DNA of 64,000 nt from a virus (lineage: Duplodnaviria > Caudoviricetes), in IMG/VR virus record IMGVR_UViG_3300049988_000286, positions 96,001 through 160,000 of that record. The stretch is one strand, 5' to 3'. Each line of letters starts with the position of its first letter. The first letter of the stretch is position 1. The notes under the pieces were generated by a model. That model was not told the DNA's origin, ran no database searches, and saw only the letters and a list, made by a program, of their open reading frames with translations. The position numbers and the translations under genes were made by a program. Below are positions 6,238-55,631 of the stretch, one piece after another.

Positions 6238-6314
6238 GCTCGTGTGGCTGAAATGGGAATGGCTACGGACACTAAATCCGTAAGATGTGGGTTCGATCCC
6301 CACGGCGAGCGCCA
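6238..6314 (+). tRNA. tRNA with CUA (amber) anticodon, atypical A33 and G7:G66 mismatch
   Basis: Cloverleaf: acceptor GCTCGTG/GGCGAGC, anticodon stem ACGGA/TCCGT with loop CACTAAA, T arm GTGGG-TTCGATC-CCCAC, encoded CCA. Confidence 0.8.
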
Positions 6315-10350: not shown

Positions 10351-10425
10351 TGGTGGGAATACTCGGATTCGAACCGAGGACACACGGTTTTAGGGACCGC
10401 TGTTCTACCGCTGAACTATACTCCC
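10351..10425 (-). tRNA. tRNA with CUA (amber) anticodon, atypical C33
   Basis: GGGAGTA-TA-GTTC-AGCGGTA-GAAC-A-GCGGT-CCCTAAA-ACCGT-GTGTC-CTCGG-TTCGAAT-CCGAG-TATTCCC-A-CCA; clean cloverleaf. Confidence 0.9.
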
Positions 10426-43372: not shown

Positions 43373-43885
43373 ATGAAGGTAGGTTTCTACGCGGGATCAT
43401 TTGATCCCATTACACTCGGTCACCTCGACATCATTGAGCAAGCCGCTCGCGTGTTCGATCGCCTCCACGTCGAGATTGGCATCAACCCGCGCAAGACGCC
43501 GATGTTCAGCATCAGTGAACGCGCGGACATGATCGAGGAAACGCTGGCAGAACGCCGCCAGCGGAGCGTTCCCGGTCAGCATCACTGCACGATCGAGGTC
43601 GGGACGTATTCGGGGGCGCTGATGGATCGTGCCGACGCTTTAGAGGCTACCGCAATCGTGCGCGGCCTTCGTCAGATCAGCGACTTCAACGATGAGTTTA
43701 CGATCAATGGTATGGTGTCTCGACTCCTGCCTGAAGTCCCGATGGTCTATTTCATCTGCCATCACGAGTTCCTTCATGTCTCGTCATCGAGCGCGAAAGA
43801 ACTGGCTCGCTACGGCTACCACGCCGAGATCGACTGGATGGTAGGTCGGGCAGTTCGAGACAAGCTACGCGCCCAATTTGAATAA
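43373..43885 (+). CDS. coaD: phosphopantetheine adenylyltransferase
   Basis: YAGSFDPITLGHLDII, NPRKTPMFS, VRGLR, DF..E, VSSSSAKE. Confidence 0.92.
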   Translation: MKVGFYAGSFDPITLGHLDIIEQAARVFDRLHVEIGINPRKTPMFSISERADMIEETLAERRQRSVPGQHHCTIEVGTYSGALMDRADALEATAIVRGLRQISDFNDEFTINGMVSRLLPEVPMVYFICHHEFLHVSSSSAKELARYGYHAEIDWMVGRAVRDKLRAQFE

Positions 43886-43919: not shown

Positions 43920-46028
43920 ATGGAAGAAGAATATCCCGAGTTCCTCCACCAGACGCTATCGAATGGAACCACTATGGAAGACGTTTTTCATATCAAGACT
44001 GCGATGAATGTCCTTGCGACGTGGAAGGGCAGCTTCTCCGACGAATCGTTCCTGCGACTCCTCATTGATCGCTTCCCCGGCCAGATCGCTGGTCCGACCG
44101 GCTGGGTGAACGAGATCAAGCGCCGCGAGAAAGAGTATTTCGACGCTAACCCCGACGCTTCTTCGGTCTTCGTGCCTTATGCGAAGTTCCTCACAGAGAC
44201 CGACATCGCCACGATCATCATCGATCCCGTCCTCGACTTCGTTGAGGGTGCTCGCGGTCCGATGCCCATCACTACCACGTGCCGCACCCTCGCAACCGTG
44301 CTCGAATTGTCCGAGCCGGAAACGATTTTGCTCCAACTCGCCATCGACATGAAGAGCATGAACTATCCCTACGAGGCCTTCTACCCTCGTATGCTCAACA
44401 TCTTCGACAATCGTGAGAACGGATTGGCGGCGATCCTCGGCCTCACCCGCGAACAGGTCCGACAAGCGACGACCGGATTCTTGGTCAAGAGCGGCTTCAT
44501 CGTGCCCACCGCCTATCCCGAGGGCTATTACCAGATCGCTGCCGTGTTCGAGGACAGCTTCGACAATGCCAACATCGAGATCGGCGACCTCGACGATCTT
44601 CTCTTCCCGCAGACGATCTCCACCGATCTCACCGTGGAGGATTATGCCCACGTGGAGGTCGATGTCACTCGCACCGAGAAGATCGTCAACAACGCGCTTT
44701 CGTCGCGCGTGCCGGGCACCAACATCCTCCTGTGGGGACCGGCGGGGACGGGTAAAACCGAACTAGCCCTTGCCTTGGCGGCGAAGAACGGCTGGAAGCT
44801 GAAGTCGATCGGCGACATCTCGGCAAGCGACGATGGTGAGAAATCGCGTGCACAGCGGTTGGGAAGCCTCAAGATCGCTCTGAAGTTGTTCAACACCGAC
44901 ACCAACACGGTGCTGCTCTTCGATGAGATCGAGGATTTGTTCAAGGTTGATAACAACGCTACCTTCTCCAAGGCATTCATCAACCGGATCATCGAGACCA
45001 CCACGGTGCCGATCATCTGGACGACCAACTCGCTCCTCGCCTTGGGGTCGCCGGTGCTGCGCCGCATGACCTACAACATCCACTGCACCACACCCTCGAA
45101 GAAGGCCCGGCGCGCTATGTGGGAGAAGTATGCGACCAACTACGGGGTCAAGCTGGACGCCGACACCAAGACGATGCTCGACGCGTTCGACATCTCTCCG
45201 GCACTGATCCGCAATTCGATGCGGGTGACCGCATCGGCACTCGCCGCCGACGCAGAGGCGAGCCAGAAGGACGTGCGCGAGATCGTCTCCTCGCTCGATC
45301 GTCTCGTCAACTTCGGCGAGAAGCGTAAGTTCGATCTTGGTGAGCCCGAAGACCCGTTCTACGACGCCTCATGTGCCAACACGGAGATCGACCTCGATAA
45401 CTTCACCGCGCGCCTCATGGATGCCAAACCGGGCTTCTCCCTGTGCCTCTACGGTCCCCCCGGAACCGGCAAGTCCAAGTATGGGCGCTATCTCGCTGCC
45501 AAGATGGGCAAGCAGGTGCTCTTCAAGCGCGCCAGCGATCTTCAGTCGATGTGGGTCGGTGAATGCGAGAAGAACATCGCCCGCGCCTTCGAGGAGGCTC
45601 GTGAGGACGGCAAGGTGTTGATCATCGACGAGGGCGATACCTTCCTGCGCAATCGCGAGCGCGCCAAACAGTCGTGGGAGGTTAGTCAGGTCAACGAGAT
45701 GCTCTCCCAGATGGAGTCGCATCCCCAGCCCTTCGTTCTGACCACGAACCTGATGGACGACCTCGACCCCGCATCGCTGCGTCGCTTCACCTTCAAGATG
45801 AAGTTCGACTTCATGACGCCCGCACAAGCATCACGCCTGTTCGAGCGCTACTTCAAGGTCAGGGCACCGGCGGCGATCATGCGTAACCATATCCTCGCGC
45901 CCGGCGACTTCGCCAACGTGAAGAAGCAGGTGGAGATTCTGGGCCTTCACGACGCCGATGCGATTTACAAGATCGTCATGGACGAGTGCGCGCAGAAGCC
46001 GAATTACCGCCGCGATATCGGTTTCTGA
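43920..46028 (+). CDS. tandem double AAA+ ATPase
   Basis: GPAGTGKT/LLFDE and GPPGTGKS/LIIDEGD, SRH DPASLRRF. Confidence 0.9.
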   Translation: MEEEYPEFLHQTLSNGTTMEDVFHIKTAMNVLATWKGSFSDESFLRLLIDRFPGQIAGPTGWVNEIKRREKEYFDANPDASSVFVPYAKFLTETDIATIIIDPVLDFVEGARGPMPITTTCRTLATVLELSEPETILLQLAIDMKSMNYPYEAFYPRMLNIFDNRENGLAAILGLTREQVRQATTGFLVKSGFIVPTAYPEGYYQIAAVFEDSFDNANIEIGDLDDLLFPQTISTDLTVEDYAHVEVDVTRTEKIVNNALSSRVPGTNILLWGPAGTGKTELALALAAKNGWKLKSIGDISASDDGEKSRAQRLGSLKIALKLFNTDTNTVLLFDEIEDLFKVDNNATFSKAFINRIIETTTVPIIWTTNSLLALGSPVLRRMTYNIHCTTPSKKARRAMWEKYATNYGVKLDADTKTMLDAFDISPALIRNSMRVTASALAADAEASQKDVREIVSSLDRLVNFGEKRKFDLGEPEDPFYDASCANTEIDLDNFTARLMDAKPGFSLCLYGPPGTGKSKYGRYLAAKMGKQVLFKRASDLQSMWVGECEKNIARAFEEAREDGKVLIIDEGDTFLRNRERAKQSWEVSQVNEMLSQMESHPQPFVLTTNLMDDLDPASLRRFTFKMKFDFMTPAQASRLFERYFKVRAPAAIMRNHILAPGDFANVKKQVEILGLHDADAIYKIVMDECAQKPNYRRDIGF

Positions 46029-46268: not shown

Positions 46269-46589
46269 TCATGCGAACATCTCCGCCAAGGCAGCATCCC
46301 ACTGGCGCGGTGCGAAGCGACCTCTGGGATAATCGTGTAGTTCCGTGGTGCGGGCACGGAGATGGATGGTGGAGGCGGCGATATCGGCCAATGCCCCCAT
46401 CTCCTCCACGGTTGTCTTGGCCACGACGGTGAGGAATTTACGCCGCTGACCTCGCGGCGGGAGGCGGACTAGGCCGCTGTCGCTCGATAGAATCTTGACG
46501 CTGGTGCTCGACAGTTTCACGAGCAGGGCTTCGATGTCGCTCTTCGGCGTCATCATCGAGAAGAACATCTGATGTTCGAAGGTTGTCAT
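46269..46589 (-). CDS. hypothetical protein
   Basis: 106-aa ORF. Confidence 0.55.
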   Translation of the reverse strand: MTTFEHQMFFSMMTPKSDIEALLVKLSSTSVKILSSDSGLVRLPPRGQRRKFLTVVAKTTVEEMGALADIAASTIHLRARTTELHDYPRGRFAPRQWDAALAEMFA

Positions 46590-46630
46590 ACCGCCCCGAT
46601 AGCAGAACCAAGGCGGTATGACAATCCGAA

Positions 46631-46894
46631 CTAGGCGGGCTCGGCTTCGAGTTCGTTCTTATCCTCGATCTCATTGCCGTCGCGATCGTCGTCGCGATGA
46701 TCGCTTGCGTGGGAAACCCGCTTGTCTTCCGAAGACGCAGAGGCGTCCGAAGGACTACCCGTAGCGATAGGCCGATCCTCCGGAATGGAGTCGTAGGTCA
46801 TCTTTACCAACGCGGGAACATCCTCGGGAAGGATCGACCGATTGTTCACGAAATATGCTTCGAGGATTTGCACCGTCTGCTCGATTCTACTCAT
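46631..46894 (-). CDS. MucR/Ros N-terminal-domain-only protein with acidic tail
   Basis: IEQTVQILEAYFVNNRSILPEDVPALVKMTYDSI resembles the MucR LTAEIVAAYVSNH..P..LP.LI..V..AL segment; no zinc finger follows. Confidence 0.55.
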   Translation of the reverse strand: MSRIEQTVQILEAYFVNNRSILPEDVPALVKMTYDSIPEDRPIATGSPSDASASSEDKRVSHASDHRDDDRDGNEIEDKNELEAEPA

Positions 46895-47534
46895 TGCTGG
46901 GTTCCCTATGCTTGAGGATTGTAAGAATCTCACGGGCGATCTCGCCCATCTGTTTCGTCGCGTCAACGACAAAATAGGTATCGCCGTGATAGTGTGCCAT
47001 CACGGCCTCGGTCTGATTGTGGTAGCGAGATAGCCGCGCCCGAAGGGCATGGGGGTTGTCCTCCTCCCGGCGTTCCAACCCGGTTGAACAACGATCGCAT
47101 ACCATCTCGGTCAGGGGCGGCTTGAACACCACATGGTAACCGGTGCCGCAATGGGGGCAGACGAGCCGACCCGCAATGCGTTCGATGAGTAGTTGATCAG
47201 CGATTCGCAGTTCTACCACGTGGTCGATCGTCATCCCCATAGAGGCGAGTAGAGCATCGAAGACTCTGGCTTGCGCCACCGTGCGGGGGAAGCCATCGAA
47301 GACATAGTGGAGTGCTGGATCGAGGTTCGTGCGGATCAGCGCGATGGCGGTCTCGTCGGACACGAGGTGGCCCGCGTTCATATCAGCGGTGATGTTCTGC
47401 CCGAGTGGTGTCCCGGCCCTCATCTCGGCACGGAGCAACTCGCCAGTCGATAACGGCACGTAGCCGTGATCGACTAGGAGGTGGGCTTGTGTTCCTTTGC
47501 CCGAGCCGGGCGGACCAAATAGAATGATGCTCAC
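46887..47534 (-). CDS. adk: adenylate kinase (Zn-LID type)
   Basis: GPPGSGKGTQA, STGELLR, DGFPRT, CPHC...CDRC, RREEDN. Confidence 0.95.
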   Translation of the reverse strand: MSIILFGPPGSGKGTQAHLLVDHGYVPLSTGELLRAEMRAGTPLGQNITADMNAGHLVSDETAIALIRTNLDPALHYVFDGFPRTVAQARVFDALLASMGMTIDHVVELRIADQLLIERIAGRLVCPHCGTGYHVVFKPPLTEMVCDRCSTGLERREEDNPHALRARLSRYHNQTEAVMAHYHGDTYFVVDATKQMGEIAREILTILKHREPSNE

Positions 47535-47565: not shown

Positions 47566-48000
47566 TCAATGGGGGCGGGTAAACCCACGCAGCTTGATTG
47601 GCGGATTGGGATCGCGCTTCATCCGAAAGCCGTTTTTCGCATCGCCGAAACCGGTCACGAAACCGAAGCGCTGATACCACTCGACCAGTTTCTTGGTCGG
47701 AGTATCCGCGTACCCGTAAGCCAGCAGTGACAGGGGGACATTGAGTTCATCAGCGATCTCACATATCGCCTTGAGCGCCACGGTGCCGCTACCCTTGGTC
47801 AGCGAGTCCATGGAGTTGATGTGCACCTCCTGATTGCCCCGACTGGGCTGGCAGTGGACCGAACAGTCATGCACGATGAAGGCTTTGGGATCGAGGGGGT
47901 GATCGCGTGAAATAGCCTCAAGGCGCTTGAAGAAGTTTTCGACGGGTGATCCCTCAATTGGCACGCCGCTCAACTTGAGGATTGTCTCTAGCAAATCCAT
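47566..48000 (-). CDS. GNAT acetyltransferase-like tagged protein
   Basis: KGSGTVALKAICEIADE...LVEWYQRFGF; TAAATA 4 nt upstream. Confidence 0.7.
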   Translation of the reverse strand: MDLLETILKLSGVPIEGSPVENFFKRLEAISRDHPLDPKAFIVHDCSVHCQPSRGNQEVHINSMDSLTKGSGTVALKAICEIADELNVPLSLLAYGYADTPTKKLVEWYQRFGFVTGFGDAKNGFRMKRDPNPPIKLRGFTRPH

Positions 48001-48015
48001 GTGGTATTTAGTGTT

Positions 48016-49000: not shown

Positions 49001-49906
49001 ATGATATCGTTGATTGAACAGATGAACCGCCTCTCCGATCGCGACAAGAAGTCGCTGTCGCAGAAAGGTCTAAAGGCCGGTGAAGAGGTGGGGGAACTCG
49101 CCAAGGCTATCCTCCCCTACGAGGGTGCGCACGGCACTCATCACCGCGTCCCGAGTGCGGACAAGATCGCCGAAGAGTGCGCGGACGTGATCTTGGTCGC
49201 ATATTCGATTATGCGACAGGTCGGCTATGACGCGGATGCCATGATGGCGATGCTACAGCGCAAGACCGATGTCTGGGAGTTGATCCTCGACAACGAGGAC
49301 CGCACTGACTGTGATAATCTCGACTTCGAGATGCACATCACCGTCGAGAGCGCCACGAGCATCGACGACTTTTCGGCAAGCTGCCGCGAAATCGGAGTTA
49401 AGCCGATCGTGCTCGATCTCTACGGCCACGGTGAGGTCAACGATGTCATGACCTCTTCTACTTTCCGGGGTTCGACCAAGCAAGCGGTTGACCATTGCCG
49501 CGATCTCGCCGCACGCTTGCGTGAGATGGGGTATCGTGTGCTTCGAGAGAAGATCGAGACGGTGCCGTGGCATCCCGCTGCGCAAACTAAATCGGCGCGC
49601 CCCTCCGCCTATTTCGAAGCCCACTTCGCTTTCGATACCCCCTACCCGGCACTCCTGCGGGAGTTCTGCCGCAACGCTGACATTCATCTATCCCGCAACA
49701 TGATGAAGAAGGGTGGGGCGAGCGTCTCAATGGGGACTTACCGCGTTGATGCTACGGAGACCACCGCATCGCAGTTTCAGGCCAGCGTTCGCAACATCCG
49801 TGACATGGCTGATGCGGCGGGGCACCGCGTCACCAAGATACCCCATACGGAATACGCCCTCCATGATACTAACGAGCGTCACGACAAGGAATGGATCAAC
49901 GCATGA
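49001..49906 (+). CDS. MazG-like pyrophosphohydrolase fused to an unknown C-domain
   Basis: KAGEEVGELAKAI...AEECADVI; C-domain FEMHIT, REKIETVPWHP. Confidence 0.75.
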   Translation: MISLIEQMNRLSDRDKKSLSQKGLKAGEEVGELAKAILPYEGAHGTHHRVPSADKIAEECADVILVAYSIMRQVGYDADAMMAMLQRKTDVWELILDNEDRTDCDNLDFEMHITVESATSIDDFSASCREIGVKPIVLDLYGHGEVNDVMTSSTFRGSTKQAVDHCRDLAARLREMGYRVLREKIETVPWHPAAQTKSARPSAYFEAHFAFDTPYPALLREFCRNADIHLSRNMMKKGGASVSMGTYRVDATETTASQFQASVRNIRDMADAAGHRVTKIPHTEYALHDTNERHDKEWINA

Positions 49907-53930: not shown

Positions 53931-55631
53931 ATGCGCGATCTCCTCAATATCCTGAACGAAACCTCCCTCCTCACCGAGTCCCGCAAGGACTATGAATCGA
54001 TGATCAACCCGGTGCTGGATGCACTGGGGAAGCCCACGGGCGAGGGGAGCAAGATCGCTGTTGATGTCAACGCGACGCTTCGTGACAAGATCATCAAGCG
54101 TTGGGGGGAGATCGTTGCGGAGGCGATGAAGACGCTCAAGAAGGCGGATCGTGTCACATGGTTCCTCCGCGCCATGCGCATCGGTATGGTGGGATCATAT
54201 GCGAAGCATCTTGATCCGGTCCGAACAAGTAAGATGGTGCGCGACTTCGAGGCTCGCTCTGGCACGCCGTTCGATCAGGATCACTTCCCCCTGATGGCAG
54301 CCCTGCCGGAATTGGAGCACTTCCTCTCCCTCCCCATCCCAGAGATCGCCAACTACCAGTTTCGCTTTCAGTCATGGACTGAAATCCACTCCACCTTCGT
54401 GGCGGCGGAGAGCCGGTGGAAGTCCACGGTCGAGAACAGCTTCGTCGATGATGATTGCAAGACGATCATCGATTTCAAGAACGGCTGGTTCTGGGTCAAC
54501 ACCGAGCGGGCATCCTGCGACAAAGAGTCACAGGCGATGGGGCATTGTGGCAACTCACCGCGCTCACGCAGCGATGATCAGCTATTGAGCCTTCGCAAGA
54601 AGATCATGGTGGGAGATCAGGCTCGCTGGGAGCCGCACCTGACGTTCATCCTCGCCCGTGATGGGTTCCTGACCGAGATGAAGGGTCGGAACAACGACAA
54701 GCCAGTCGAGAAATACCATAAGATGATCGTCGCCCTGTTGGCCGATCCGATCATCAAAGGTATTCGTGGTGGAGGTTATTTGCCGCAAAACAACTTCTCG
54801 ATGGATGATCTGGACGCTGGTCTGCGGAACAAGCTGATCGAAGAGAAACCCGAACTCGGCTCAACATGGAACCTGTATGAGAAGTACGGTCTCACTGATG
54901 CGGTCTTTGATCGCGTTTGTGAACGACTGCGGACCCACGGGTTGGAGGAGCCGCACGAATTCGATGCCGACACGGGAACCATCGTAATATTCGATGGGAC
55001 GCTTGCAAAATTTGCTGTGGGCGAACTTGATCTCGACTCCGATGTCGTCAATCTCGCGACCGGTGATCGTGACGAGATCGAATGGCTGGACACCAGCCCA
55101 GCGGAGGGTTTGCGCATCATCGAGGGGTTGGACGAAGACCCCGACACCGAGCACGACATCATCGGTCTCATTGCCAGCCTGATCCACCTCGACAAGGACC
55201 AAGCCATCGACGGTCTCCTCCACACATTCCCGAAGTCGGTCGCATCGATCTGGGACGAGGTGTGGGAACAGGTTCGCACCACGGCGCACGATCAACTCGT
55301 CTCATTCGTTGATAATCAGTCGTTTGACTACCGCGCCCTGATGGTCACGGTCACCGGTGACAACGTTCGCGTCACGGTAGACGCAGAGACTCTGATCAAC
55401 GATATCGCGTCTGTCATCGACAAGGACGAGAACATCGATGACGACAACAACTTCGAAGCGTCGGTACGATCAGGGCTGTGGTTTGAAAAGGACAGCTACG
55501 GCTATGACGCCGACCCGGAGGAGGCTAATGAGCCGAAGCTAGACGAGTACGAGGCAGAAGCGTTCCGCGCATTGTCTCGGCACATCCGAGGCCTGTTCGA
55601 CCACTCCGACCAGTTGGAATTCGGTTTCTGA
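53931..55631 (+). CDS. large tagged protein (566 aa), possible PcfJ-like central domain
   Basis: MRDLLNILNE; ESQAMGHCG...LSLR...PHLT...EMKGRNNDKP; TAAATA 4 nt upstream. Confidence 0.65.
   Translation: MRDLLNILNETSLLTESRKDYESMINPVLDALGKPTGEGSKIAVDVNATLRDKIIKRWGEIVAEAMKTLKKADRVTWFLRAMRIGMVGSYAKHLDPVRTSKMVRDFEARSGTPFDQDHFPLMAALPELEHFLSLPIPEIANYQFRFQSWTEIHSTFVAAESRWKSTVENSFVDDDCKTIIDFKNGWFWVNTERASCDKESQAMGHCGNSPRSRSDDQLLSLRKKIMVGDQARWEPHLTFILARDGFLTEMKGRNNDKPVEKYHKMIVALLADPIIKGIRGGGYLPQNNFSMDDLDAGLRNKLIEEKPELGSTWNLYEKYGLTDAVFDRVCERLRTHGLEEPHEFDADTGTIVIFDGTLAKFAVGELDLDSDVVNLATGDRDEIEWLDTSPAEGLRIIEGLDEDPDTEHDIIGLIASLIHLDKDQAIDGLLHTFPKSVASIWDEVWEQVRTTAHDQLVSFVDNQSFDYRALMVTVTGDNVRVTVDAETLINDIASVIDKDENIDDDNNFEASVRSGLWFEKDSYGYDADPEEANEPKLDEYEAEAFRALSRHIRGLFDHSDQLEFGF

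Follow-up and report, generated by a model that had tools for sequence, protein, structure and literature searches.

A phage gene for a probable stand-alone MucR/Ros oligomerisation domain with an acidic tail, and its possible late action on MucR rings

Rhizobia, Caulobacter, Sphingomonas and other Alphaproteobacteria have MucR as their main xenogeneic silencer. Here we describe a small phage gene, ORF87, whose product probably contains, at residues 4–37, a diverged MucR/Ros oligomerisation domain that lacks a zinc finger. The gene lies in a 64,000-nt stretch of DNA, called the window below, that covers positions 96,001 to 160,000 of the IMG/VR record IMGVR_UViG_3300049988_000286. ORF87 is truncated relative to MucR, its N-terminal hairpin is under selection and the same phage genome carries a second, full-length mucR. 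Tentatively, and with somewhat less than even confidence, we read ORF87 as a late modulator that co-assembles with MucR rings.

A preliminary description of this locus had reported an 87-aa ORF with a MucR/Ros-like N-terminus and an acidic disordered tail where the zinc finger would be, and this was borne out by the reading frame, by hidden Markov model (HMM) searches and by inspection of all frames. ORF87 runs from 46894 to 46631 on the minus strand, from an ATG to a TAG (Table 1); the plus-strand frame at 46631–46894 is not a gene. Its ATG overlaps the stop codon of the adenylate kinase gene (adk) by 8 nt, an arrangement that suggests translational coupling to adk. Codon usage is gene-like only in the ORF87 frame (0.32, vs -0.73 and -0.67 in the other frames) and is so in each half of the gene. 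Residues 1–40 are amphipathic. Residues 41–87, which comprise 14 D/E, 6 K/R and 4 hydrophobic residues but no Cys, are modelled as coil by AF2 from the single sequence. Neither a zinc finger nor a MucR C-terminal motif was found in any frame downstream, and read-through of the TAG would add just 14 residues, which rules out a frameshift or amber read-through that restores the zinc finger. An independent contig from another study (X2) spans 46457–47009 with 14 substitutions and no indels relative to the window, so the truncation did not arise in assembly. ORF87 is a real gene. As a separate observation, the window contains two CUA-anticodon (amber-reading) tRNA genes, at 6238–6314 (plus strand) and 10351–10425 (minus strand), despite which TAG still terminates 23 of 149 long ORFs in the phage genome.

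Table 1 Features of the ORF87 locus in window coordinates, and the full-length mucR of the same phage
Feature	Coordinates	Strand	Basis
ORF87, 87 aa: MucR/Ros-like N-terminal domain and acidic disordered tail, no DNA-binding domain	46631..46894	-	ORF, profile, codon use, predicted fold
Codons 1–38: predicted two-helix hairpin (helices 3–17 and 25–35), under apparent purifying selection	46781..46894	-	profile, model, variants
Codons 39–87: Ser/Asp/Glu-rich disordered tail, net acidic, weakly constrained	46634..46780	-	composition, AF2
Weak Shine-Dalgarno-like AGGGA, 8 nt 5' of the ORF87 ATG	46903..46907	-	sequence
Adenylate kinase (adk), complete with lid, directly upstream of ORF87 in the inferred operon	46887..47534	-	
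144-aa gene without assigned function, first in the inferred operon	47566..48000	-	
TAAATA box, 4 nt 5' of the ATG at 48000, T4-like late promoter motif	48005..48010	-	
Strong hairpin just 3' of the ORF87 stop, ~25 bp near-perfect, -37.5 kcal/mol, z -8.8, no U-tract	46572..46632	-	
Full-length phage mucR, outside the window	G000:C1:299135-299701 (L001:1465-2031)		

The resemblance to MucR is recognisable by profile, although it is faint. The sole match in a Pfam search was the family named in the preliminary description, ROS_MUCR (PF05443), with residues 4–42 aligned to profile positions 3–40 at E 0.04, but the score of 14.4 bits lies under the gathering cut-off of 25.4 bits; a pairwise hhalign comparison of ORF87 with a MucR alignment gave 77% (E 2e-5). 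With an N-domain HMM built from 143 bacterial and phage MucRs, the query left out, ORF87 scored 14.1 bits over residues 4–36, a value reached by 0 of 20,000 shuffled versions (none exceeded 8.9) and compared with -1.6 for the reversed protein. Its rank with this HMM was second of 9,806 six-frame segments from the phage genome (E 0.022), behind the full-length phage MucR. True N-domain members had a leave-one-out median of 65 bits, and just 5 of the 143 scored lower than ORF87. At database scale (5.8 and 1.84 billion proteins) the profile similarity is not significant. A genome search with a MucR N-domain alignment missed ORF87 at E up to 5, BLASTP against the phage's own MucR gave no match, and the best tblastn match in 7.3 Gb of plasmids was an annotated MucR, though at E 4. 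A match to the ArtA toxin (E 0.1–1.2) is confined to 34 residues inside an unrelated enzyme and was taken as chance. Without a DNA-binding domain and with a score short of the cut-off, ORF87 does not qualify as a full Ros/MucR protein; it probably belongs to the MucR N-domain fold.

The predicted structure points the same way. The MucR N-domain is an alpha1-loop-alpha2 hairpin, and the two helices of ORF87 in the single-sequence AF2 model (pLDDT about 80) fall at the hairpin positions (PMC11662661), and codons 1–38 take in what corresponds to MucR1(17-47), the minimal self-associating fragment. The hairpin of ORF87 is a predicted one, and short hairpins are a common shape. In a structure search of the ESM Atlas, residues 1–42 retrieved a ROS/MUCR cluster first (TM 0.80), followed by stand-alone hairpin clusters of Thermodesulfobacteriota with lengths of 53 aa (123 members, TM 0.73) and 58 aa (1,446 members, TM 0.71), values to be read against the TM of about 0.7–0.8 at which short helical hairpins match unrelated proteins. 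Both Thermodesulfobacteriota clusters are alike in shape to residues 1–41, and there may be a wider family of stand-alone MucR-like hairpins that includes them. A fold search with the AF2 model returned nothing significant, and MucR was not among its results.

Self-association of Sinorhizobium fredii MucR1 requires I20, V21, Y24, V25, V30, L35, I39, V42 and L46 (PMC9410896), and we looked for these as a signature of periodic I/V/L at 20, 21, 25, 30, 35, 39, 42 and 46, Y/H at 24 and a fixed 35-39-42-46 spacing. The corresponding residues of ORF87 are I10, L11, Y14, F15, I21, V26, V30, T33 and I37. Branched aliphatic residues thus occupy six of the eight positions, the Tyr is kept and the strict spacing is exact, and we count the signature as present. 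The non-aliphatic residues are also found in natural members at those positions (T in 18 of 143, F in 2 of 143), and the one extra residue of ORF87 sits in the loop, the more tolerant part; Q6, E12 and F15 deviate from the MucR consensus. Each of these lines is weak by itself, but MucR heads most of them, in sequence and profile searches, in fold and in residue signature.

As judged by sequence searches, ORF87 is an orphan. No homologues were found among 5.8 billion or 1.84 billion proteins, or in metagenome contigs, where searches returned just ORF87 itself or low-complexity tail matches, and a phage tblastn search gave one chance match (H1, E 9) in an unrelated frame. A search of 28 related viral records (five near complete) found no domain-only MucR copy; as its first pass also misses ORF87 in the phage's own genome, such a copy may have escaped it. 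A profile search for MucR N-domain proteins of 29–105 aa yielded 59 besides ORF87; the 29 examined look like near-canonical bacterial fragments or frameshifts, and no family resembling ORF87 was found among them. Across 301 alphaproteobacterial genomes, nearly all matches listed fall in frames of at least 133 aa. On a 12.8-kb IMG/VR contig (L005), several mucR copies lie within 2.6 kb.

Should ORF87 then be regarded as a decaying mucR pseudogene, or as a chance ORF without function? Its orphan status would fit, as would the short N-domain-only MucR entries in databases, which mostly look like contig-end or frameshift products, and a prophage mucR (L019:2346-2633) that is apparently frameshifted after its N-terminal domain. 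We nevertheless consider this highly improbable, since no remnant of a C-terminal domain is present in any frame, the coupled start is intact, both halves have gene-like codon use and the same frame is found in the strain of another study. The variants seen in independent runs weigh against it as well. Six fall in codons 22–36, two of them seen in two studies, and all six are synonymous (P 0.0014 if neutral, taking one third of transitions as silent), with no other change in the first 40 codons. In the tail, 3 of 4 variants are non-synonymous (D50E, D72G and K79E), and the synonymous share differs between domain and tail (6/6 vs 1/4; Fisher P 0.033), on counts that are small and from contigs of low depth (2–5), with as many as three further differences close to contig ends left unplaced. 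With these small numbers and low-depth contigs, the pattern indicates that ORF87 is a maintained gene with selection on the hairpin. The synonymous bias argues against a decaying pseudogene, but it does not name the partner of the protein.

The record is the 499,572-bp genome of a T4-like phage with 57% GC, 41 tRNAs and a tmRNA, and the run that contains all of the phage DNA is a leaf metagenome; none of the sequencing runs listed as containing it is an RNA run. Its DNA is not AT-rich, with 6% of 200-bp windows below 50% GC. The full-length MucR of the phage (188 aa, E 2e-38) is encoded 139 kb beyond the window, with a TTGACA box upstream; its zinc site is degenerate (Cys-x2-Asp, without the His pair), and the C-terminus is extended by a basic stretch. 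Its named relatives are mostly from Novosphingobium, which suggests an alphaproteobacterial host; similarity of the coaD gene was uninformative for host assignment. A block of a tail-sheath stabiliser, two small genes, an ATPase and mucR recurs in related megaphage contigs (L002, L003, L004 and L236), one of which is 547 kb long. As a partner for ORF87, the full-length phage MucR is as possible as a host MucR.

The inferred operon consists, in order, of TAAATA, the 144-aa gene, adk, ORF87 and the hairpin. TAAATA sits 4–5 nt before an ATG at 103 of 171 genome sites, the genes behind it include those for the large terminase, a baseplate wedge and the tail-sheath stabiliser, and by analogy with T4 it would be a phage late promoter. 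No sigma-70-like promoter was found on the ORF87 strand of the operon. Because the operon is headed by the late-type TAAATA and no sigma-70-like site was found on this strand, ORF87 is probably expressed late, a timing that depends on a promoter lying 1.1 kb and two genes upstream. The hairpin is a possible transcript end or processing site.

Several other features of the locus were recorded. The next gene, which encodes 106 aa, has its first possible ATG (46589) hidden within the hairpin; 6 of its 6 variants are synonymous, and it had no homologue in the searches made. Synteny searches in more distant relatives with adk, the AAA gene and the 106-aa gene gave no informative locus. The AAA gene, at 43920–46028 (plus strand), encodes a double-AAA ATPase of 702 aa (phrog_10401), of which two phages of 462–465 kb (L234 and L235) have copies with about 50% identity. 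Host-like metabolic genes in the window are, besides adk, one for a CoaD-like protein of the cytidylyltransferase fold (43373–43885, plus strand) and a MazG-like pyrophosphatase fusion (49001–49906, plus strand). An MRDLIDLIE-like N-terminal motif recurs in about 40 of the 103 genes with TAAATA 4–5 nt before the start (for example at 53931 on the plus strand and 48000 on the minus strand), presumably reminiscent of T4 capsid-targeting leaders; ORF87 ranks 120 for this leader class, with a score of 0.8, and was excluded from it.

A heteromer of ORF87 with host MucR, as expected in the preliminary description, was modelled by complex prediction with Sphingomonas MucR. Residues 1–42, folded without an alignment to avoid circularity, scored 0.35 with two Sphingomonas MucR N-domains vs 0.02 for the best control. 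In the calibration of this score, on a set that differs from the ORF87 job, 58 of 80 solved pairs came up to the mark against 2 of 110 mismatched ones, but only 7 solved pairs, and both mismatches, did so at 0.60 or below. At least 94% of contacts recur between runs, the partner pLDDT is at least 71, and the score fell to 0.02 when an unrelated protein took the place of MucR. The prediction thus lends weak support to binding between ORF87 and a MucR N-domain. A sequence search of the PDB found just the MucR DNA-binding domain, and N-domain hetero-oligomers between MucR paralogues are known from experiment (PMC9410896, PMC12560781).

A different function is a sizeable possibility, if not the one we favour: the hairpin, whether derived from MucR or convergent, could self-assemble into an acidic ring or bind a partner other than MucR. 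Selection on codons 22–36 reveals a function, not a partner, the divergence of ORF87 from MucR is large, and the 53- and 58-aa hairpins that come next in structure stand alone as ORF87 does; yet it is at the positions of the MucR self-association signature that ORF87 is conserved, and the complex score drops to 0.02 once MucR is swapped for the unrelated protein.

MucR works as a ring of about 12 subunits that silences and bridges AT-rich DNA; the N-terminal hairpins hold the ring, and the zinc-finger domains face outward. ORF87, as a diverged, stand-alone oligomerisation domain made late in infection, would insert its hairpin into the MucR rings of the alphaproteobacterial host or of the phage itself. 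Each inserted subunit would place an acidic tail where the basic DNA-binding domain should be, so that ring valence and DNA bridging would most likely be lowered, a loosening like that by truncated H-NS (H-NST), and replicated phage DNA and AT-rich late promoters would be freed for transcription and packaging. Late timing, co-assembly and the direction of the effect are what we infer; that the effect on the rings is specifically inhibitory is, taken alone, rather doubtful. More doubtful still is that ORF87 represents the first natural protein antagonist of MucR, with full-length MucR acting early and the domain-only, acidic-tailed form acting late as an on/off pair that dismantles the rings. 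In the literature searched, we found no phage anti-silencer aimed at MucR, no domain-only natural MucR and no protein antagonist of it. A 2020 review lists truncated derivatives and protein partners of MucR as unknown (PMC7710501), and c-di-GMP is the sole MucR anti-silencing mechanism that we found described (PMC12560781).

The preliminary description had proposed that ORF87 poisons host MucR as a dominant negative, so that phage DNA is de-repressed or exopolysaccharide and cell-cycle genes are altered. In an early-acting form of this reading, ORF87 would relieve silencing of phage DNA as it enters, or of the host's genes for exopolysaccharide and the cell cycle. In its favour are the precedents of H-NST and CgpS-N, the nearest N-domains of ORF87, which are those of ordinary bacterial and prophage MucRs and not that of the phage's own, and the weakly supported complex with the Sphingomonas domain. 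However, the operon is headed by a late-type promoter with no sigma-70-like one found on its strand, the phage genome is GC-rich enough (57%) to count against it, the phage supplies a full-length MucR of its own and the precedent of S. fredii MucR2 has the opposite sign. The truncated MucR/Ros identity stands with good confidence, whereas early de-repression appears improbable.

Compared with known systems, ORF87 resembles the Ros/MucR N-domain (PF05443; PMC9410896, PMC11662661) in its two-helix hairpin, N-terminal position and minimal self-associating region, and in its I-x-x-A-Y core, [ED]-[LV]-P-x-L-[IV] second helix and exact spacing. It differs from Ros/MucR in having neither zinc finger nor basic regions, and in its acidic tail, one-residue loop insertion, short first helix and score under the family cut-off. 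H-NST and the engineered CgpS-N act as antagonists (PMC7074111, PMC5137423), and like them, in E. coli islands and Corynebacterium respectively, ORF87 is a silencer oligomerisation domain without a DNA-binding domain; like H-NST with H-NSB/Hfp, it shares its mobile element with the gene for a full-length homologue. The folds are, however, non-homologous and the host class differs, H-NS forms filaments whereas MucR forms rings, and H-NST has some DNA binding via basic residues and a demonstrated antagonism that for ORF87 is only proposed. If the reading holds, H-NST would gain its missing counterpart among MucR proteins, a natural domain-only form kept under selection, with which MucR rings could readily be titrated.

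Of the natural MucRs that keep the N-domain intact but have a dead DNA-binding domain, S. fredii MucR2 is the only one tested; it hetero-oligomerises with MucR1 and promotes MucR1 DNA binding and bridging without binding DNA itself, and its deletion has no phenotype (PMC12560781). Like ORF87, it is a natural MucR paralogue whose N-domain comes without DNA binding (PMC9410896, PMC12560781). Because MucR2 enhances bridging, the rule that a truncated silencer is a dominant negative, valid for H-NST and CgpS-N, is not automatic for a ring silencer, and ORF87 may weaken or strengthen silencing. In the opposite-sign form of co-assembly, ORF87 would be a ring filler that stabilises MucR or raises bridging, helping the phage MucR to organise replicated DNA or to silence host genes. 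Besides MucR2 itself, the in vivo stabilisation of MucR by N-domain association (PMC9410896) and the conserved position at which the phage keeps its full-length MucR speak for such a role. We still think it unlikely, since MucR2 retains most of its length, whereas ORF87 has just an acidic tail, which should repel DNA. MucR2 is, moreover, a bacterial plasmid gene that is full apart from a frameshift at residue 114, while in ORF87 a tail stands in for the entire C-terminal domain and selection acts on an N-domain that has moved far from MucR. ORF87 makes it directly testable whether ring silencers are poisoned by subunits that lack DNA binding or reinforced by them, as MucR2 suggests, and whether the acidic tail decides the sign of the effect. 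Finally, the phage anti-silencers T7 gp5.5, T4 Arn and LUZ24 Mip (listed in PMC7710501) are, like ORF87, small phage proteins, ORF87 being proposed to aim at a xenogeneic silencer as they do; unlike ORF87, they are unrelated to their own targets and act on H-NS or MvaT.
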